Virus record (IMG/VR): IMGVR_UViG_3300043567_000437
Location: 1 to 25,964 of that record
DNA: 25,964 nt
Strand: one strand, 5' to 3'
Source: a virus
Lineage: Duplodnaviria; Caudoviricetes
The position numbers were made by a program, and so were the translations under genes. Below are positions 7,630 to 17,020 of this stretch, in pieces. The notes under the pieces were generated by a model that was given only the letters and a program-made list of their open reading frames with translations, did no database searches and was not told the origin of the DNA. Position 1 is the first letter of the stretch. The number at the start of each line of letters is the position of its first letter.

Positions 7630-8526
7630 TCAGTGGATGGGGAAGAAGTCCGGCTTCAGTTTGTAGGACGTTCGCCCGTGCGCGCTGTACTTGTGCAGCG
7701 AGAGGCGCATCCAGACGGCTCCGATGATCTCCGGGGTACGACCCTGCTCGACGTGGAACCCGCCGTAGCCGTCCCCGAACTCGTCCTTGTACGTCCCGAC
7801 CCGGACGTGGTACTGCACGTCATGCTCGACGCGCATCCCGCTCTTGTCGGCAACGAGGCGTTCACGGGCAAGCGGCATGACCCACTGCTTGTGGACGTGT
7901 CCCTGCACGACCACGTCAGCGTCCGGAATTACCGCCGCCTGACGGCGCACCTTCAGTGTGTCGAAGGACATCAGTGCCGCGCCGCCGCTGCCGTGGAAGT
8001 ACTTCAGGTTGAGCGCGTAGTAATGCGTGTTCACCGCGACGACGAACTTCACCCAACCACCGTAGCCACCGGGGTTTACCTTGTGCTTCGAGAGCATCGT
8101 CATTCTCTCGCACAGGCGCTCGGTCAGATCGGTTTCGTTGTTCTTGAGGACGCTGGCCTCGTGGTTGCCGCGCCCGATGACTATGCAGTGGGATGAATAT
8201 GGCGCGTAGAACTCGGCGGCGTGGTTCACGATGGAGTCGAAGTAGTCCGGCGCGAGAGCGTGTTCCTCGCGCACTCCCTTGCGACTTCGCCTCGGATCCG
8301 CCCGCCCTTCCATAGCACAGAACAGGTCGCCTACGTCGATCCACCCCGCGCCACGCTTGACACATTCGTCAAGGTGCTTTCGCTCCAAGTCGTGGTCTGC
8401 GTGAGGGTTATCGTGGTGCCTGTCGCCCGACAGTAGGAACCACCATTGGTCGGTGACGCTGCTTGCCACGATTTTGACGTGGTGGATATTGCGGGCTGCT
8501 GCCGTCACCGTCCAAGGCAGTTCCAT
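7630..8526 (-). CDS. Calcineurin-like metallophosphoesterase
   Basis: Ordered motifs GDRH, GDLF, GNHE, HG, GHVH. Start is uncertain. Confidence 0.88.
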   Translation of the reverse strand: MELPWTVTAAARNIHHVKIVASSVTDQWWFLLSGDRHHDNPHADHDLERKHLDECVKRGAGWIDVGDLFCAMEGRADPRRSRKGVREEHALAPDYFDSIVNHAAEFYAPYSSHCIVIGRGNHEASVLKNNETDLTERLCERMTMLSKHKVNPGGYGGWVKFVVAVNTHYYALNLKYFHGSGGAALMSFDTLKVRRQAAVIPDADVVVQGHVHKQWVMPLARERLVADKSGMRVEHDVQYHVRVGTYKDEFGDGYGGFHVEQGRTPEIIGAVWMRLSLHKYSAHGRTSYKLKPDFFPIH

Positions 8527-8552
8527 GCCGTCACGGTACGGCCACAGGATTG

Positions 8553-8593
8553 CCAAACGAACAGCCCCCGCGGCACGAAGCCTGCGGGGGCTG
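8553..8593 (-). terminator. Intrinsic terminator-like hairpin
   Basis: On the - strand CAGCCCCCGC-AGGCTTCGTGCC-GCGGGGGCTG followed by TTCGTTT; perfect 10-bp outer stem. Confidence 0.65.
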
Positions 8594-8675
8594 CTTCCGG
8601 GGGCTGTCAAAGCCCGTGCAGGACGCATGACTCCGCTACACGCGGGGCATCTCGTCAGAGAATCCTGCCGGGCGG
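8553..8675 (-). ncRNA. Candidate ~120-nt structured sRNA or attenuating leader
   Basis: Bounded by promoter 8680-8707 and terminator 8553-8593. Closing stem GCCCG-GCAGGA/TCCTGC-A-CGGGC encloses TCTC-TGAC-GAGA and CCGC-GTGTA-GCGG hairpins. Confidence 0.45.
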
Positions 8676-8679
8676 CATC

Positions 8680-8707
8680 AATCTAGTCGGTTTTGGGGCG
8701 GAGTCAA
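8680..8707 (-). promoter_or_regulatory. Sigma70-like promoter (leftward)
   Basis: TTGACT (8707-8702), 16 bp, TAGATT (8685-8680). Confidence 0.6.
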
Positions 8708-8730
8708 GAAACTCCGCCCCAATTCCGACT
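8685..8730. repeat. Long inverted repeat (operator or cruciform candidate)
   Basis: AGTCGG-TT-TTGGGGCGGAGT-CAAGAA-ACTCCGCCCCAA-TT-CCGACT: perfect 12-bp core plus 6-bp outer arms. Confidence 0.9.
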
Positions 8731-8736
8731 TTGCGC

Positions 8737-8766
8737 TTGCACCGTACCGGGATGGAGCAGTACTAT
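8737..8766 (+). promoter_or_regulatory. Sigma70-like promoter (rightward)
   Basis: TTGCAC (8737-8742), 18 bp, TACTAT (8761-8766). Confidence 0.5.
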
Positions 8767-8771
8767 GCGGG

Positions 8772-9215
8772 CTGCGAAACCAAAGCGCGCTCACAGTCTA
8801 GCGCGTCAGACCTGCGGGTCAAGACTGTCGGAAGATTTCCACGCCGCGGTAGGTGGAAAGTGGTTCAAGACGTGCGATCTGACCCTAGCGCACGCCGTCG
8901 AGAGACGCGCTCGTCCTGAAGCGGAGCGGCTGGTGCCACCCAGCGAAATGGTGAAACATTCAGGCAAGGGAAACCTCGCACGGCTCCGGTCGGGCTGATC
9001 TCCCGTGACTCCATCGCATGGGGTCATGGTGTTCCTTCACTCACCCGTCGGGCTGCAAAGCAGCCTGACGCCCTGCGCGTCGCAACCCACGGCGGGACAG
9101 ACCTTTGGACTCCGCCAATATGGGTGCGGTGGGTATGTCGAACTACCCCTGCGAACATCCGCCGCGCAGCGCAGCCGTAGGCGAAGCGAAGCGGAGCGGC
9201 GGAGCGAAGGACTTC
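8772..9215 (+). ncRNA. Candidate large structured non-coding RNA or RNA-primed origin region
   Basis: No credible ORF. More than ten consecutive hairpins, GNRA loops, G-U pairs favouring the + strand, and loop-to-distal complementarities. Confidence 0.5.
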
Positions 9216-9217
9216 GC

Positions 9218-12200
9218 CTAGCGCACTGCCGCCCCGCCCTGCCTTGCGCGCTCGATCTCGCGTCTTCGGCGCTCGATGCGCTCCATGAGCCTGTCTCGCG
9301 GTGACTGCGGCTCCTTGGTGGTGGATGACTTCTCGCGCTCCGGCTTCGGCATGAAGTCCCGGACGAACTGGTACAGGCCGTACATCGGGAATCCGGCGAA
9401 CTGCGAGGCCGCGAGGAGCGCAGCGACGACGCGCTCCGGGATCGGCTTCGGGCCAGTCGCCTCTCGGATCACCTGCTCGACCGGACGAACTGCGATAGGG
9501 GTGAACGGGGCGCGCCGGAACTCGATCGCGCTCGTGACCCACCCGAGGACGATGCCTAGGTAGCCGAGCGTGGAGGACATTGCCTCGTTCAGAACGCCGA
9601 CGGGCAGTCGCTTCGCTGCCTCCATCGCCTCCTTCTCCTCCTCGTCGCTCGGCCCGTCCCCGCCGAACAGCCCGGCGACGAGCGAGACGAGGTATCCGGT
9701 GGTCGCAAGCGATGCCGCGCCGATGATGGTGCTTGCCGCCATGTTCGCGCCGATCGCGAGTCCAGTCTCCAGACGCCTGTCGCCGGAGATGAACGCGCGC
9801 CGGATCTGGTTGCGCGCCTTGACCGGGTCGCTGCTGAACGGGAAGAAGATCCGCCAGCCGGAAGCGCCCTTGACGCGGTTGTATGCCGACAGCAGGCTGT
9901 CGTCGAACTCGTCGCTTGCGTTTTGCGTGCGGCGGAAGTCACGCTCGGCGCGGAGCGCGGCCTCGCGCAGCGCGTCCTGCCCGGTCAGGATGCCCTCGTC
10001 CTCGATCTCCGCGAGACGAGCCTCGACAGCGGCAAGCATGATCTGCTCGTCCATGTAGCGGAGCATGTCCACCACGGACGCAATCATCATGTTCGCGCCG
10101 TTGCTTGCGTCCTTGAACCGACCCGCCGCATCCGTCAACTGCGCGGCGGCGAGGTTCTGGCCTGCCGCGCGGAAAGAGTCGATCATCGAGTTCCACGCCG
10201 TGGAGATGCGGACACGGTCGGCATCGGACAGTGAACCGCTGATGATCGACCGCATGTGCATCTGGTGCCGACGGCTGAAGTACCCGTTGAGCGAGTGAAT
10301 CTCCTCGACGCGGGCATCCCACGCAAGCGGGTTGCGCAGGCGAGACGCTGCACGGGCGACTCCCTTCGACCAGTAGCCGAGCGGGATCTCGCTTGCGAGA
10401 CGCATCTGACCGCCGACGAGAACCTTTGCAAGCGTGCGCGGACGCAGCGCGAGGACTGCCCCGGTCACGTTGTTGGTCAACTTGTCGATGATCGTCGGGT
10501 TGCTGCGCGCTGTGGCTCCGACGCCGTTCGAGAACACGGCGAGAACCATCTCCGCCGTTCCGTTGCCGAACTGCCTGTCGATCCCGGCCACCACGGCAGG
10601 ATCAGTAAGCACGGTCGCAGCATCGCGATAGGGCTGCGCCATGTGGATCATGTCGAGCGCGACCTGAACGTGCCGCTCCCATGTCTGGAACGCATCCCGG
10701 TAGATCAGCGGCTCCGTTCCCCCGGTTCGAGCCTGCGCGAACCCGACGTTCGTCAGCGCGCCGCGCACGAGGTTTCCGGCGGTGGCGTTCAGGTTGCTTG
10801 CGTCGCCCTTCTGCTTCGAGAGACGGACGCGAGGCCAGTAGTTCTGCACCACCGGAGGCTGGTCGCCCTCGACCGCGAACACGGCGTCCATTACGCGGTC
10901 GCGGATCTGCGTTTCGAGGACGGTCTTCATCGCGTCCACGATCCCACGTTCCTGCGCGGACAGGCCGGAACGGATTGCCTCGATGTCCTGACGGCTCGGG
11001 TAGAACGTCTTGGTCGTCTCCGCGCCAGCGAAGGTGATTCCCTGCCCGGCGGTGCCGGGCGTGTCCGGGAACAGCGCAAGCGTCTCGTCGTCCATCGCCG
11101 CGACGGACAGGATCGTCCCGACCGGGAGCGTCACGTCCTGACCGCCCATCCGAACAGTCCGCAGGTTGGCGGAAGCCTCACCGAGCAGCCCGTTCTTCAG
11201 CGCGTAGTCGTCGATGCTCGTGTAGCCAGCCGCCTGAAGCGCGGGAACGATCTGCCGGAGGATCGAGGCGTGTTCGAGCGATGCCTCTCCCTTGCCAGCC
11301 TGCGCGGAGACGAGCAGGTTGTTCAGCACCCCGGCGTCCGATCCCTCCAGTTCCAGCATCATCGTGTAGATGTCGCTGTTTGCGCGTCCGACCCGGCGGT
11401 AGAACGGGATCGTCGCGGCCTTGTCGGCGCGATCTGCTTCCGCAAGCGTCGGGCGACCGGACATGTTGTTCAGCATGTCCTGACGCAGCGCGTCATAGCG
11501 CGCGATTCGAGCCGCACGCTGCGCGAGGTACTGCTGCCTGTCAAGGGAGTGCAGCAACCCAGCCTGTTCGACAAGAGCCGCAGCATCGACCACCGCGGAG
11601 TACATGTCCACGGCATTCACCAGCACCGGGGTCGCTCCGCGCTGCGCCTGCACGGCAGCACGAAGCCGCTGACCGCTCGTCGTCTTCAGTCCGGCCTCTG
11701 CCTGCGCGAGAAGCGCCTCAACGCGCGTTCTCGTCGTGTAGGTCATGCCGCGCCTGCCGAGCCTCTTGCGAAGCGCCTTGATCTCCTTGATGGTGTCGGC
11801 AACCTCCGCGTCCGCGGCCTGCTTGACGGCATCCACTGCGATCCGGTTGGCCTGCGCCAGAGTCTTTGCGTTTGCTATCTTGATAGCAAGCACGCCGCGC
11901 TGCGCGACTGGCAGCATCTTCGCCGCGTCGGCAGCGATCCGGCGCACGGCGTCTGCCACCTGCTCCTTCTGGTCGGCGCGCATCCGCGACATCTCGCGCA
12001 ACTCGAACAACTGCCGCTGGAGCGTGTCCTCGCGCTGCGCCATCCGCTTCAGAACCTGCCGACGACCCTCCATCACGCCTTGCACGCGACCCTTCGCGAG
12101 TCCCATGCCGTAGGCGAAGTTGATCGCGCGCTGCGCAGCCGCAGCGTCCTGCTTGATCTGCCGACGAGCCTCGCGAAGAGCAGGCACGGCGGTGTTCAGC

Positions 12201-15200
12201 CGCTCCTCCACGATGGCAAGCCGCTCCGACAGTTTGCGAACGACACGGCGCTCCTGCTTCTGCCCGGCCACCTGCCCGGATACCAAGCCCTCGCGACGAC
12301 CGATGGCATAAGCGAAGTCGATGGCGCGCTGCGCCGTCTCCTCCGCGTCAGCAAGGCGCTGCTCAAGGTTCTCGCCGCGCCGCAGCGACCCGAGTTCCTG
12401 CTTCAGCGACTCGACGGACGCCTTGGCGGAGTCGAGACGGGTCTGCAACTTGGCGATCTGCGCGTCAGCAGCGGCCATGTCCTCCTTCGCCGCCTCGCGC
12501 TCCAGTTCCACGCGCATCTTGGCGCGTGTCGCCTGCAACGTCTTCTGCTCCGCGACGCGCTCCGCAGTCAGAAGGCGGCGTTCGAGGATACGAACCTCGC
12601 GGATGGCGTTGGTGCGCTGCGCCGCGGTGACGTTCTGCACGTCGCGGATCTGGCGCTGAAGCACGGCGATCTGTTCGCGCAGGCTGGCCGCTTCGGCATC
12701 GCCTTCGCGGGAGAACGAGATGAGCGGCGTCGTAACGTCGAAACGCTTTGACAGCGGGATGACGTTGCCCTGCTCGTCGCGGGTGACTGGGTTGGCAGAT
12801 TTGATTTGGCTTGGAAAAAATACGACCTTGATGTCGTCAGGAGTTGCTGACCCGTCATAGGTATTTAGAAGCAATACGGAGTCATGCCCGCTTGCTTTCG
12901 CGTTTTCAATTATGGATGCGTAACTTTCCTCGCGATATGCCTCGCCCTTGAAATCGTAAGTGAATGGATTCTCCATTTTCAAATACGCATTTACCAAGGC
13001 TTCCGGCGGAATACTTCCAGCCGCGCTTTCTTCCACCAGCGCATACCATTTTGGTAGCCAAGTGTTATCAATGAAATCAAACAGCGCATCATGTTCTTCT
13101 TGCGGCATCTTGAAGTCAAGTACATCATTCCTGACATAAAGACCAGTATCCGCAAGCAACTCAAAATAATCGTAGTTAGTCAACGCCGAATATCCGGCGT
13201 TTTCAGGAACAAACGCATCGTTTCCTCTTGCAAGTTCGTATGCAAACGATCCTGCCCATTCGCGATATTTGTCGCGATACTGTTGCGGTGTTTTGTCCAA
13301 CAATTCTTTAGCAAGTGCCTTGAACTTGTCGGCGTATTCACGACCGGATAGTGGATTTAGTTCTCCCTTACTCGCATAGTACTTTGCTGTTTCTTTAGAT
13401 CCAAAAAAGAATCCCATACGCGCGCTTGGCGCTCCTGTATTTGTTCCAAGCAATTCAGGAGCAAATGCGCCGCCTTCAAGTTTTCCGGATGCAACACCGT
13501 GAACTCCACGAACCGTATAACCCGCGGTTCGCGCCGCCTCGTCAACCATGCGCTGCGCCGTCGCCATGTCGCCGCGCTCGACCGCCGCAAGGTAGTCGGA
13601 GTCGGAGGCGCGGGACATGCTGATGCCGGGCGCGGAGGTGGGGCGCTCGTTGAAGACGGACTTTGCTTGGTTAGAATCGAATGCAACATATGTGGTGCTT
13701 TCGATGCTTTCTCCGTTGATTACCAAGTCCTCATCGAAAATTGCACCGTCATAACCGCGATTCTTCAAGAACGCGACGAACCGTCTGCCAAGTTCGTCAT
13801 CGAACAATCGCCATCCGCTGCTGTTCTTTGCAGCGATCCACAAGTCTCGGTCGGCACCAAACGCATCAATGGTGTCTGCAAATTCAAGCACCAAATTTCT
13901 CGTGACAGTCGCAGGATTTTGCATCGCCAAATATGACGGGATAATGCTGTTCCCGTACTGCGAAGCAAACTGCGGATTGTTGCTGAAAAAGATGCCAGTA
14001 CGCTCGACTTCAACTGGCCCGAAAGTGGTTTCGTTTACTGATTGCGACGTTGGAGCAAAGGCATCAAATTGAGCATTTGTCCCGTGGTACACAACCAGCG
14101 GTCGTCCCTGATCGTCCACGACCTTGCTGTCACCGAACCACTCGCGCCACTCGGGAGTAAATGACGACAGCGGGCGCGGTTCGCGCGCCATCGACACTCC
14201 GGCGGGCTGCGGCTGCGGTGCCTGCGGAGCGGCGGGCTGCGCCTGTTCTGCCTCCGGCTGCGATGCTTGCTCGATTTCCGCAGGGATATCGACGCTCATG
14301 TCCTCCATCCACAGCAGCGTCCGGCCAAGCGGTGACAGTGTCGCGTCCGGCTTCACGCCAGCGGCCTTCTCGACGGCAGCGGCACGGGCAACGGCGTCGA
14401 TCACCGACATCGCGCCCGCGACCTCGCGACCCATCAGACCGCGGCGGGCTGCGAAACGAACGAGAGGAGACAGGACGCCGCGTCCACCGACACGGGCAGC
14501 GGTCGGGCCGAACGCATTTGCCTCGCCCTCCTGCTCAAGACGTGCCGCGCCGATGCGACTGACGGCGGCAGGAACCTCAACGTCCACGCCCTCGATCCCG
14601 GCAGCGGCGACCGCTGCCTGAATGCGGGCAAAGGCGTCGGCACGACCCTTGGCAGCGGACTCCGCCTGTCCTTCCGCGTACTGCGCGCCCGCGGCGTAGA
14701 TCGGGGCAAGGCCGACCTGCTGCGAGTACGCCTGCGCGATCTCCGGACGGAACATCTGGATGTCGTGGAACACCTCTTCATACGCCTTGGCGCGCACGCT
14801 CGACATGTTGGCGTCGGCGTTGAGGTAGATCGTCCCGCGAGTCTCCAGCGTGTGGAAGCCGGGGCTGTTGAACTTCTTGCTCGACGGCCTGAACCACACG
14901 ACCTTGATGCCAAGAGCCTCCATCTCGCGCTGGATACGACCGCCAGTCTTCGGAGCCTTGACAGGCTTGATGTCCACGCCGACGCTTCTGCCGAGGTTGG
15001 ACAGAACCTCGTCGCTCTGGCGCTGCATGACATCCATCGGCATGTCGGACAACTTCTCCGACACCGCCGCGTATGTCGCGTTGGCGATCATGTGGTCGTT
15101 CGTCAGCATCCGCAGTTCCGCGTCCGTCTCCTCGACCTGACGGCGGATGTCGTCCACCGCCTCGGTCGGGTCGATGGACTGGCCGGGCGACAGTTCGAGT

Positions 15201-17020
15201 CCGACCGCAACGTCGGCGTCCGCACGGGCGGACTGCAACGCCCGCGTGGCCTCGTTGACGAGAGCCTGCGCATCCGTGACCGCCTGCTGCCGCTGCGCCG
15301 GGGTGACGATCTTGCGACCACGGCGGGCAACGCGCGGAACGCCAGCCTGCTCCTGCGCAAGTTGCATCTCGGCAAGCGCATCGCGCGCTGCCTGATAGTC
15401 GGCCTCCGCCCTGTCGAGCGCGGCCTGCGCCTCCGCGATCACTGCCTGCTGCGCCTCGCGGTTCTGCGCTCCGGCCTCGAACGTCCGCTGCGACTCCAGC
15501 GCGGGCGCGAGTGCAGCGTCGAGATCCTGACGGTGGGCAAGCAGCGACTCGACCTTGGCTCGGATCTGCGCACGCCTATCAGACAGTTCCCGCAGGAAGA
15601 TGCCGCGCTCCTCCTGATTCATTCCGTTCAGGTTGTTCAGCGCGACAGCAACCTCGGCCTGCTGCGTGTCGTCCAGTTCCTCCGTCCAGTTCGTCCGAGC
15701 CTTCATGGCGTCGGAGTGCAGTTGACGCAGGCGGATCTCCGCGTCCGTCTCCGGGCGGAATGCGTCCTGCCTGTTCTTGATGGCACGACCAGCGACTGCC
15801 CCGGTCACGCCGACGCCGCCGCCGATGCCTCCGGCGACACTGCCGATGAAGGCGCTGTACAGGCCGTCGGACAGATCCTTGGACAGCGGAGCCTCGGTGA
15901 ACGGGGCTTCGAGGATCGCTGCTCCAAGTTCTTCGGCACCTTCCTCGGCGGCAGACGTGGCGACAAGCCTCGCCGCATCACCGAAGAACCCGTTCCGGAA
16001 CCGCATCGTCCCCTGCGACACGCGCGCAAACGCCTCCGCGCCAGCCTGCCCGGCCTTGCTTGCCATCGCCTTCTGCACGATGGGCGCACCGCGCTCCGAC
16101 AGCGCGCCAAGCGCAGACCGCCCGACCTTGCTGCTGACCATCTTCGCGCCGATCGTCCCGATGGCACGCCCGGCAACTCCTGCGCCGATGACTTCCGTCC
16201 CGGTCTGGATCATGGCCGACGCCGTCGCGCGGCGCTGCATCTCGTCCACGCTGTACTGCGACAGTTCCTTGCCGTCCAGTGCCTCCTGCGCACGCTTGGC
16301 GTCGATCTCGTCGAGGTACGCCAACTGCCCGCCAGTCCATGCCGACAGCGGGAGGGTCGCCTGCGACGCAATGTTGGCCGCGACCACTGGAAGCCCGGCA
16401 CCGCCAGTGGCGATCGCCCCGGCGACCCCGGCGAACTGCGGCAGCGTCTGGCCGATGGCACGGGCAACGTCGCCCGTTACGCCCTGCTGCTGACCAGCCG
16501 CCATGCCCTCGGCAGCACCGCGGGCGGCGATCTGCTCCGTCCGCAGGTCGTCAACGGTCAGCCCCGAGCCGGACGGCTCCAGAGCCTGCGATGCCAGACG
16601 ACCCATGACGGGAGCAATCGGGCGCGCATAGGGCGCGGCAACGGCGAACCACGGGTCGAGAACCGACTCGAAGAACTTGGCCCGCAGGCCGGGAGTGGCG
16701 ATTGCCTGCGCAGCCTGCGCCATAGTCTGGCGGAGTCCGCGCTCGACTTCCCTCGGTTCCGCCTGAATCGAAGGGAACCGCAGCGCCTCCGGAAGCATCG
16801 GAAGCACTTCCGGGATCACCAACTCGTTCTGATAGTCCGCCGCCGCGATCCGCTGAAGATCCTGCTCCCCCGCCGCCGCGCCCGGAGCAGCACCCGGCTG
16901 CGCCGATGCCGCCGCCTTGGCAATCCTTTCAAACGGATCTGAAACCGCGCCGCCCGTGTCAAGACCAGCGGAAGAGGCGGCGTTCTTGATACGGTCAAAC
17001 GCGGAGTCGAAGGTTGACAT
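9218..17020 (-). CDS. 2600-aa large polyvalent virion/ejection-type protein with a degenerate zincin-like domain and two ART-PolyVal-like ADP-ribosyltransferase domains
   Basis: Last and largest of the ejection-like genes. Ala/Gly-rich hydrophobic N-terminus, TIYLNAD..AYEEVFH, WFGDSKVVD..GRPLVVYHGT..GIFFS..GYDG..YVAFDSNQAKS, and a second copy VHG..GFFF..GHDS..VVFFPSQIKSA. Long coiled coils and a hydrophobic C-terminus. Confidence 0.85.
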   Translation of the reverse strand: MSTFDSAFDRIKNAASSAGLDTGGAVSDPFERIAKAAASAQPGAAPGAAAGEQDLQRIAAADYQNELVIPEVLPMLPEALRFPSIQAEPREVERGLRQTMAQAAQAIATPGLRAKFFESVLDPWFAVAAPYARPIAPVMGRLASQALEPSGSGLTVDDLRTEQIAARGAAEGMAAGQQQGVTGDVARAIGQTLPQFAGVAGAIATGGAGLPVVAANIASQATLPLSAWTGGQLAYLDEIDAKRAQEALDGKELSQYSVDEMQRRATASAMIQTGTEVIGAGVAGRAIGTIGAKMVSSKVGRSALGALSERGAPIVQKAMASKAGQAGAEAFARVSQGTMRFRNGFFGDAARLVATSAAEEGAEELGAAILEAPFTEAPLSKDLSDGLYSAFIGSVAGGIGGGVGVTGAVAGRAIKNRQDAFRPETDAEIRLRQLHSDAMKARTNWTEELDDTQQAEVAVALNNLNGMNQEERGIFLRELSDRRAQIRAKVESLLAHRQDLDAALAPALESQRTFEAGAQNREAQQAVIAEAQAALDRAEADYQAARDALAEMQLAQEQAGVPRVARRGRKIVTPAQRQQAVTDAQALVNEATRALQSARADADVAVGLELSPGQSIDPTEAVDDIRRQVEETDAELRMLTNDHMIANATYAAVSEKLSDMPMDVMQRQSDEVLSNLGRSVGVDIKPVKAPKTGGRIQREMEALGIKVVWFRPSSKKFNSPGFHTLETRGTIYLNADANMSSVRAKAYEEVFHDIQMFRPEIAQAYSQQVGLAPIYAAGAQYAEGQAESAAKGRADAFARIQAAVAAAGIEGVDVEVPAAVSRIGAARLEQEGEANAFGPTAARVGGRGVLSPLVRFAARRGLMGREVAGAMSVIDAVARAAAVEKAAGVKPDATLSPLGRTLLWMEDMSVDIPAEIEQASQPEAEQAQPAAPQAPQPQPAGVSMAREPRPLSSFTPEWREWFGDSKVVDDQGRPLVVYHGTNAQFDAFAPTSQSVNETTFGPVEVERTGIFFSNNPQFASQYGNSIIPSYLAMQNPATVTRNLVLEFADTIDAFGADRDLWIAAKNSSGWRLFDDELGRRFVAFLKNRGYDGAIFDEDLVINGESIESTTYVAFDSNQAKSVFNERPTSAPGISMSRASDSDYLAAVERGDMATAQRMVDEAARTAGYTVRGVHGVASGKLEGGAFAPELLGTNTGAPSARMGFFFGSKETAKYYASKGELNPLSGREYADKFKALAKELLDKTPQQYRDKYREWAGSFAYELARGNDAFVPENAGYSALTNYDYFELLADTGLYVRNDVLDFKMPQEEHDALFDFIDNTWLPKWYALVEESAAGSIPPEALVNAYLKMENPFTYDFKGEAYREESYASIIENAKASGHDSVLLLNTYDGSATPDDIKVVFFPSQIKSANPVTRDEQGNVIPLSKRFDVTTPLISFSREGDAEAASLREQIAVLQRQIRDVQNVTAAQRTNAIREVRILERRLLTAERVAEQKTLQATRAKMRVELEREAAKEDMAAADAQIAKLQTRLDSAKASVESLKQELGSLRRGENLEQRLADAEETAQRAIDFAYAIGRREGLVSGQVAGQKQERRVVRKLSERLAIVEERLNTAVPALREARRQIKQDAAAAQRAINFAYGMGLAKGRVQGVMEGRRQVLKRMAQREDTLQRQLFELREMSRMRADQKEQVADAVRRIAADAAKMLPVAQRGVLAIKIANAKTLAQANRIAVDAVKQAADAEVADTIKEIKALRKRLGRRGMTYTTRTRVEALLAQAEAGLKTTSGQRLRAAVQAQRGATPVLVNAVDMYSAVVDAAALVEQAGLLHSLDRQQYLAQRAARIARYDALRQDMLNNMSGRPTLAEADRADKAATIPFYRRVGRANSDIYTMMLELEGSDAGVLNNLLVSAQAGKGEASLEHASILRQIVPALQAAGYTSIDDYALKNGLLGEASANLRTVRMGGQDVTLPVGTILSVAAMDDETLALFPDTPGTAGQGITFAGAETTKTFYPSRQDIEAIRSGLSAQERGIVDAMKTVLETQIRDRVMDAVFAVEGDQPPVVQNYWPRVRLSKQKGDASNLNATAGNLVRGALTNVGFAQARTGGTEPLIYRDAFQTWERHVQVALDMIHMAQPYRDAATVLTDPAVVAGIDRQFGNGTAEMVLAVFSNGVGATARSNPTIIDKLTNNVTGAVLALRPRTLAKVLVGGQMRLASEIPLGYWSKGVARAASRLRNPLAWDARVEEIHSLNGYFSRRHQMHMRSIISGSLSDADRVRISTAWNSMIDSFRAAGQNLAAAQLTDAAGRFKDASNGANMMIASVVDMLRYMDEQIMLAAVEARLAEIEDEGILTGQDALREAALRAERDFRRTQNASDEFDDSLLSAYNRVKGASGWRIFFPFSSDPVKARNQIRRAFISGDRRLETGLAIGANMAASTIIGAASLATTGYLVSLVAGLFGGDGPSDEEEKEAMEAAKRLPVGVLNEAMSSTLGYLGIVLGWVTSAIEFRRAPFTPIAVRPVEQVIREATGPKPIPERVVAALLAASQFAGFPMYGLYQFVRDFMPKPEREKSSTTKEPQSPRDRLMERIERRRREIERARQGGAAVR

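Follow-up and report, generated by a model that had tools for sequence, protein, structure and literature searches.

The lambda O-P and SPP1 G38P-G39P genes are initiator-loader modules. The ornate RNAs GOLLD, ROOL, OLE and raiA are long and pseudoknot-rich and have their own promoters. Many small tailed phages lack a recognisable replication initiator. RNA-primed origins have precedents in ColE1 (PMC5043065, PMC4412123, PMC5935869, PMC8683028) and in mycobacteriophage prophages (PMC7157519). In ColE1, the RNA contains a run of rG that pairs with a run of dC in the template (PMC4412123), and the trigger that makes the persistent hybrid form is described as still speculative in a review (PMC5043065). 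In cluster A mycobacteriophage prophages, RNA-based origins alternate with the Rep genes of sister phages (PMC7157519). Among plasmids, ARRPOF, GEBRO and PAGEV are replication-linked structured motifs, 223-349 nt in length, and ARRPOF lies in a region that is sufficient for Rep-independent replication (PMC5737381).

The whole stretch of DNA analysed in this study (the window, 25,964 nt) is a 62%-complete virus record of a tailed phage. Its genes include ERF, PD-(D/E)XK, RusA-like and tail-fibre genes and one encoding a 2600-aa protein with an ART-PolyVal domain, and lake-water metagenome runs contain DNA near-identical to it. A non-coding element lies between a phosphoesterase-like gene and this giant gene. 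On comparative grounds, we consider it probable that the element works as an RNA-primed or R-loop replication origin, ColE1-like but unrelated to ColE1. Its RNA is a concrete candidate for the missing initiator of small tailed phages. The features of the locus are as follows.

7630-8628, minus strand: left neighbour, a phosphoesterase-like gene (a homolog matches phrog_7339), divergent and outside the element
8685-8788, minus strand: predicted counter-transcript (~100 nt), its end placed at the inverted repeat 8685-8730 (from promoter and terminator-like site)
8737-8766, plus strand: sigma70-like promoter TTGCAC-18-TACTAT (from sequence), with a predicted start near 8773-8774
8774-9059, plus strand: conserved structured core, type I, ~285 nt (from alignment and covariation; predicted 5' end)
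8785-8828, plus strand: exchangeable 5' module of P1, P2 and pseudoknot PK1 (8793-8799/8822-8828), from covariation
8795-8822, minus strand: putative antisense promoter TTGACC-16-TAGACT inside P1/PK1/P2 (from scan and conservation)
8829-8859, plus strand: P3 hairpin with the 3-bp pseudoknot PK2 (8829-8831/8844-8846), changing from CGG/CCG to CGC/GCG and TGC/GCA
8871-8894, plus strand: P4 with a near-invariant GACCCTA loop (100% paired, 5 of 6 pairs with two-sided changes)
8896-8964, plus strand: P5 (mostly GAAA loops), P6, P7 and pseudoknot PK3 (8915-8920/8959-8964), from covariation
8950-9045, plus strand: 3' domain of P8, P10, P11 and P12 (9005-9027), common to RNA types II and III
8986-8997, plus strand: R1, first copy of a co-varying 12-nt direct repeat (from mutual information), proposed guide
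9044-9055, plus strand: R2, second copy, standing where conservation ends (from mutual information), proposed DNA target and hybrid start
9081-9128, plus strand: tail module A, swappable nested stems
9164-9205, plus strand: group of six GCGNAGC mini-hairpins in the non-template strand, a proposed single-strand loading signal for helicase/primase
9218-17020, minus strand: right neighbour, the 2600-aa ART-PolyVal protein (from gene call and domain), convergent and probably virion-borne

The element is like ColE1 in having no recognisable replicon-encoded initiator protein, a predicted promoter-led folded RNA and a predicted antisense promoter in the 5' portion. Two further traits of ColE1, a single-strand signal downstream on the displaced strand and an RNA segment that pairs with template DNA, may have counterparts in the GCGNAGC cluster and in R1/R2. 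However, it has no sequence or Rfam similarity to RNA I or RNA II. The phage RNA is ~285 nt against ~550 nt in ColE1, has three pseudoknots, and in place of the rG/dC tracts it has a 12-nt repeat that varies. The predicted counter-transcript overlaps it by ~15 nt, whereas RNA I complements all of the first 100 nt at the primer's 5' end. The element also resides on tailed phages, often together with a phage loader. As in the mycobacteriophage prophages, a non-coding RNA region takes the place of a replication gene of sister phages, a Rep gene there and a likely initiator gene here. On the other hand, the window RNA has no blastn match in the phage collection, and no partition genes occur among the scanned neighbour families, hence no adjacent parABS; ParB-like genes were found in one genome (G016) only, away from the RNA. 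The window RNA swaps with O-like initiators of lytic modules beside a loader, and has a defined pseudoknotted fold and a putative guide repeat. Its module position, upstream of a G39P-like loader, is that of the initiator in lambda O-P and SPP1 G38P-G39P, but a non-coding element stands there instead of an initiator gene. ARRPOF, GEBRO and PAGEV are likewise structured and replication-linked; the present RNA differs from them in being phage-borne, in having no Rfam match and in its observed exclusion with initiators. It shares with GOLLD, ROOL, OLE and raiA a pseudoknot-rich fold and an own promoter, but has no Rfam match, is tied to a replication slot and is shorter than GOLLD, ROOL and OLE.

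Homologs were collected beside the phosphoesterase gene and by motif scans. The scan matches judged real were 75 of 77 and 85 of 86 in viral sequences, one of two in genomes and 25 of 120 in metagenomes. The homologs represent 113 distinct contexts in 31 clusters at 90%, detected by profile HMMs rather than a calibrated covariance model, by which more distant members may be missed. In the covariation set of 42 distinct homologs, 45 of the 78 pairs showed two-sided changes and 91.7% of cells paired. None of 500 shuffles reached this level, and slid controls paired at 36-45%. The folding energy of the window was unremarkable (z -1.44, with 10 of 100 shuffles equally good), and the mean z over 21 of the 42 homologs was -0.47 for the sense and -0.27 for the antisense strand. 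Therefore, the single-sequence fold was not taken as evidence and covariation was used instead. The novel, promoter-led and pseudoknotted phage RNA postulated in the initial annotation is supported by covariation and by the absence of an Rfam match, and not by folding energy.

The annotation also saw no credible ORF in the stretch. A called gene overlaps the core in just 2 of 89 loci, on which ground the protein-coding reading was rejected; stop-free frames numbered 8 on the plus and 13 on the minus strand, of 126 each. Rfam covariance models gave no match to the window at the gathering score (seven chance-level matches, E 2.4-8.7) and none to six homolog loci at E 1, which agrees with the claim that the family is not a recognised one. 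When the window element or one of its homologs was compared with phage and plasmid collections by blastn, no real match was obtained. No plasmid record covers more than 12% of a homolog, and the downstream motif region gave only short weak plasmid matches. A search for tRNA and tmRNA found none, the region 8600-9300 contains no DnaA box or AT-rich stretch, and strand skew at four-fold sites, which is confounded by gene class, gave no origin signal. No account of the RNA family was found in the literature; its motif strings are absent from six supplements of PMC10690425, of which three further supplements may contain it. The element is a real, uncatalogued structured element, predicted to be a triple-knotted RNA.

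The stems, loop complements and promoter hexamers listed at the outset are all present at their positions. In a register-free test, the AGG-GAAA-CCT hairpin at 8967-8976 received no support (1.33 vs 1.32), and two of the three loop pairings proposed as pseudoknots stood. The own run of PK1 was 6.45 bp against 4.16 bp in cross comparisons (max 5.23), and that of PK3 was 6.64 against 4.29 (max 5.27). The third, TCTGACCC (8878-8885) with 8816-8824, was indistinguishable from its control (3.97 vs 3.98). A new pseudoknot, the 3-bp PK2, was found instead within P3: two of its three pairs show two-sided changes and 95% pair, and the register-free test did not separate it from the null. Two new long-range helices, P8 (8950-8954/9041-9045) and P10 (8969-8975/9028-9035), close the 3' domain. 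As P10 differs from one subfamily to another, its pairing in this register is only 65%. The GACCCTA loop of P4 may pair alternatively with GGGTC at 9021-9025; this GACCC/GGGTC pairing is near-invariant, with a single compensatory case (L490). Two UGNRA-like motifs lie at 8947-8956 and 9053-9059 and may be T-loops.

The RNA is shorter than the ~440 nt first suggested, since conservation stops near 9059 and 9060-9217 is a swappable, modular tail. An 11-bp stem at 9046-9070 had been counted into the RNA, as had the nested stems at 9081-9128; the former is exact in 1 of 105 downstream regions and the latter module occurs in just 17 of the 105. The 3' tail is probably a separate module that acts at the DNA level. 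RNA types II (L453:1800-2310, L478:1890-2310) and III (L454:900-1330) share nothing with type I beyond their 3' domain and the repeat R1/R2, type III having been assigned via its shared 3' motifs alone. Both swap at the same slot among near-identical phages.

The position of the sense promoter is conserved: the best -10-like hexamer stands at the same distance from the RNA in 38 of the 42 homologs, and at least 7 of 12 promoter positions match in 32. The score of the window promoter was only 7 of 12, and the promoter scan did not list it. These data bear on the reading that the structure acts as single-stranded DNA, as an ssi/sso-like origin, rather than as RNA. The tail resembles a DNA signal, and covariation cannot tell single-stranded DNA from RNA (PMC5737381). 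However, a conserved promoter that keeps its distance, 19 of the 42 P5 hairpins with GAAA loops and frequent one-sided G-U changes on the plus strand speak for RNA, and we regard a DNA structure as very unlikely.

The antisense promoter is conserved as well. Its minus-strand -10 (TAnnnT, three invariant columns) is present in all 42 homologs, and a -35 with at least 4 of 6 matches lies 16-17 nt away in 36 of them, against a background of 8%. A terminator-like site follows 80-104 nt past this promoter in 27 of the 42 homologs (40 having at least 120 nt of flank). No such site was called in the window itself, where the inverted-repeat hairpin at 8685-8730 has a z of -5.9 when folded as DNA. The predicted counter-transcript would overlap just ~15 nt of the sense RNA and cross the sense promoter.

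The reading as a replication origin gains its main support from the gene slot. Whole records of 24 phages of several virion types were scanned against PHROG with 126 cluster representatives together with 300 small or gap ORFs. The gap scans covered ORFs up to 1200 aa, called genes from 85 aa and uncalled ORFs from 110 aa; around two dozen cluster and gap representatives, mostly matching previously scanned proteins, were left out. Fifteen records carry the RNA (13 type I and two the longer type II), and no initiator, primase, helicase or polymerase was recognisable by these scans in any of the 15. All nine records without the RNA encode replication proteins: three DUF1376, one HTH initiator, four PolA with primase, and one initiator with primase-helicase. 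The gap scan recovered an initiator missed by the gene caller (in G031), which served as a positive control. Matches to phrog_864 ('DNA primase') in RNA carriers were rejected, as they fall on methyltransferase genes. In six-frame family searches of 45 records, DUF1376 was found in three, HTH_36 above the cut-off in one and PolA in eight, and none of these in the 31 RNA carriers; two RNA carriers gave weak HTH matches below the cut-off.

The replacement can be followed gene by gene. In the group of the window, the order in G004 is exonuclease, small gene, phosphoesterase, RNA and giant protein, and in G029 and G030 a DUF1376 gene stands at the RNA position in the same orientation. In a second group, the RNA precedes a 150-aa loader gene in G009, DUF1376 precedes that gene in G032, and an HTH_36 protein matching 'replication initiation protein' precedes it in G031. 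Slots anchored on the loader (the best 80 of 132 loci) contain the RNA in 63 (46 type I, 4 type II, 13 type III) and DUF1376 in 14, three are too short, and none holds both. With the C-terminal part of the giant protein as anchor, 17 loci, of which one is identical to the window, contain 14 RNAs and three DUF1376 genes, never both. As the loci share ancestry, the slot and exclusion counts are not independent, and the loader alignment was built from RNA-adjacent proteins. The nearest relatives of the window by the giant protein (84%) carry the DUF1376 protein instead of the RNA. In two neighbour-anchored trees, the grouping of all protein carriers in one clade was rejected (p-AU 0.0004 and 7.5e-44), and at least four and at least two label changes between RNA and protein are required. 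Therefore, the swap between RNA and protein happened repeatedly.

DUF1376 is likely the replication initiator because of its PHROG label ('primosomal protein'), its winged-helix fold, with middling matches only (Z 5.6 or less), and its position. Its relatives are named replication protein or replisome organizer, and the part of PMC5795418 that concerns it only lists DUF1376 for a phage in which a putative helicase loader is present as well. Since the RNA occupies the likely initiator-gene position of sister phages, it likely starts phage DNA copying itself. The mention of a replication primer RNA in the initial annotation has thereby gained strong comparative support. Its other suggestion was a stand-alone ornate RNA, a scaffold of the GOLLD/ROOL kind or a host modulator, sitting in an exchangeable slot of phages that replicate by recombination or with an unrecognised protein. 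The elaborate pseudoknotted fold with its own promoter, the ERF/RecT, exonuclease and RusA genes of the inspected phages and the many ORFs without a family are in favour of this. However, the initiator carriers have recombination genes too. A stand-alone RNA leaves unexplained the exclusion with initiator genes (15/0/0/9) and the repeated initiator swaps, as well as the identity-covarying repeat and the alternation of mini-hairpins and loader described below; we judge it unlikely.

The DUF1376 and HTH_36 initiator genes are preceded by a conserved leader of ~110 nt, in which two loops are complementary and co-vary in a kissing-loop-like manner (L364:5684-5773, L435:1833-1945, L365:10803-10894; also L002:4808-4895, L005:4736-4824). 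This leader has no Rfam match and is likely an autoregulatory, separate new motif. In L002 and L005, the structured leader of the initiator gene is retained ahead of the RNA and replaces the 5' module 8785-8828. Some loci (L067:5174-5755, L055:5186-5749, L092:5185-5748, L454:173-853, L467:1259-1855) have HNH-like genes, of three kinds, located after the initiator leader and before the RNA; that of L067 matches a PHROG HNH family and the others were judged by eye. Such genes may cause the RNA cassette to home into initiator alleles. These genes, and an internal repeat that looks like a guide or template, could suggest that the RNA serves a mobile nuclease (OMEGA/HEARO-like) as guide or cargo, or a reverse transcriptase as template. 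However, no HNH-like gene adjoins the window element, the three types occur in some loci only, and, unlike OMEGA and HEARO RNAs, the phage RNA has no constantly adjacent nuclease gene. As to retrons and DRT systems, a reverse transcriptase (PF00078) was found in 0 of 45 records, with the control positive in 3 of 14 genomes. The probability of a nuclease or reverse-transcriptase RNA is therefore regarded as minimal.

The direct repeat is the second line of evidence for an origin RNA. The top mutual-information pair, 8989/9047, reflects identity and not complementarity, and the repeat occurs in all three RNA types. Over the 38 distinct 10-nt pairs of R1 and R2, identity accounts for 273 positions; of the others, 83 differ in the direction that an RNA-DNA wobble permits, 7 in the reverse direction and 17 by transversion. 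Pairable positions average 9.37 of 10 against 6.95 for shuffled partners (max 7.76). At the four variable positions, the counts are 88 identical, 13 wobble, 5 reverse and 6 transversion. Hairpin P11 accounts in part for the wobble bias of R1 (G in place of A). On the same strand, no complement of R2 was found at a consistent position. The repeat is variable and without an rG/dC tract, and it fits RNA-template pairing as predicted from sequence. The simplest partner of R1 is likely the template DNA strand, by analogy with ColE1. Natural variation points to the co-varying 12-nt repeat as the putative hybrid-nucleating step.

The same data apply to an RNA initiator that has no R1 DNA guide and recruits host replication proteins or the loader, with R1 and R2 as partners in a folding switch. 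Downstream of R2, 27 of 89 rows contain R3, a complement of the conserved half of R1 (10% expected by chance), which could compete for R1 by RNA-RNA pairing. The invariant GACCCTA loop with its possible GGGTC alternative would also suit a switch. However, the identity of R1 and R2 is independent of R3 (3.08 of 4 in its absence, against 1.5 for shuffled partners, max 2.21), and R2 has no in-strand complement at a consistent place. A switch without a DNA guide has, in our estimation, a small chance of being correct.

Downstream of the core, at least two GCGNAGC motifs occur on the sense strand in 41 of 105 regions and on the antisense strand in 1 of 105. Such motifs may resemble primosome assembly sites. 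Motifs of the GCGNAGC type form very stable DNA mini-hairpins, and related ones are described at phage priming sites (PMC13037366). At least two mini-hairpins are present in 27 of 37 loci lacking the loader gene against 10 of 62 bearing it; in the largest RNA cluster, the counts are 7 of 7 against 1 of 15. The alternation has exceptions on both sides, with at most one mini-hairpin in 10 of the 37 loader-less loci and loader plus mini-hairpins together in 10 of the 62. The best fold match of the N-domain of the 150-aa loader is SPP1 G39P (1no1; Z 7.0, rmsd 2.7, 61 aligned), followed by DnaD (Z 6.5), both middling and below Z 8. Foldseek on the PDB gave nothing at E 0.001, and no Pfam or PHROG family matched. 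The DUF1376 proteins differ in a similar way: those of loader-less phages are ~280 aa with an extra C-terminal region (L364:4840-5676, L360:3213-4070) and those beside the loader are 175-190 aa, which mirrors the tail-or-loader alternative of the RNA.

The arrangement of the neighbours also concerns a possible role as cis-regulatory leader of the downstream gene, suggested by a same-strand gene following the RNA in many loci. The giant gene at 9218 is convergent, so the RNA leads no gene in the window, and the next gene is convergent throughout the group of the window. Moreover, the loader gene varies in position relative to the RNA (downstream, upstream-divergent or convergent), and where it is downstream it has its own promoter-like site. 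A leader function therefore has practically no likelihood.

For the preferred origin reading, we propose the following scheme. Host RNA polymerase would transcribe the element, and the folded RNA would present R1, with helix P8 placing it beside R2. R1 could then capture the template DNA strand at R2 and create a persistent RNA-DNA hybrid, which would prime leading-strand synthesis by host enzymes or just keep the origin open. By ColE1 analogy, these enzymes may be RNase H and polymerase I. The displaced plus strand would load the host helicase via the GCGNAGC cluster in the window or via the G39P-like loader in relatives. The antisense counter-transcript might damp firing, more likely through promoter interference than through extensive pairing. 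In its full form, in which a variable internal guide targets the template strand of its own element and the RNA is a drop-in replacement of lambda-O-like proteins, the proposal is a tentative one, with slightly less than an even chance in our view. Held just as tentatively is its extension to a cassette that is spread across unrelated tailed phages and paired with either a mini-hairpin site or a phage helicase loader. If this is true, the R-loop start would be programmable by rewriting R1 and R2 together. A further suggestion of the origin reading is an origin function for some ornate phage RNAs, and the element could yield a protein-free replicon for hosts lacking genetic tools.

In GTDB, one of two pattern matches was real, on a 3-kb contig of a planctomycete MAG (Isosphaeraceae). 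Neither the RNA element (one 28-nt chance match) nor the loader was found in 400 other genomes of its phylum. Three RNA-labelled runs gave scattered short contigs only, inside and outside the element, and are uninformative on expression. One phage group has a further conserved non-coding stretch upstream of the replication slot (L369:7340-7460, L435:1500-1600), beyond the small gene following the phosphoesterase. In the window, a PAPS-reductase-like gene (1105-1917) lies in a low-G+C island, and similar genes recur beside the RNA slot in relatives. Within the 2600-aa gene, near the ART-PolyVal region, the G+C content of 12850-13950 falls to 46-55% from ~65%, and this stretch is probably a recently exchanged domain.
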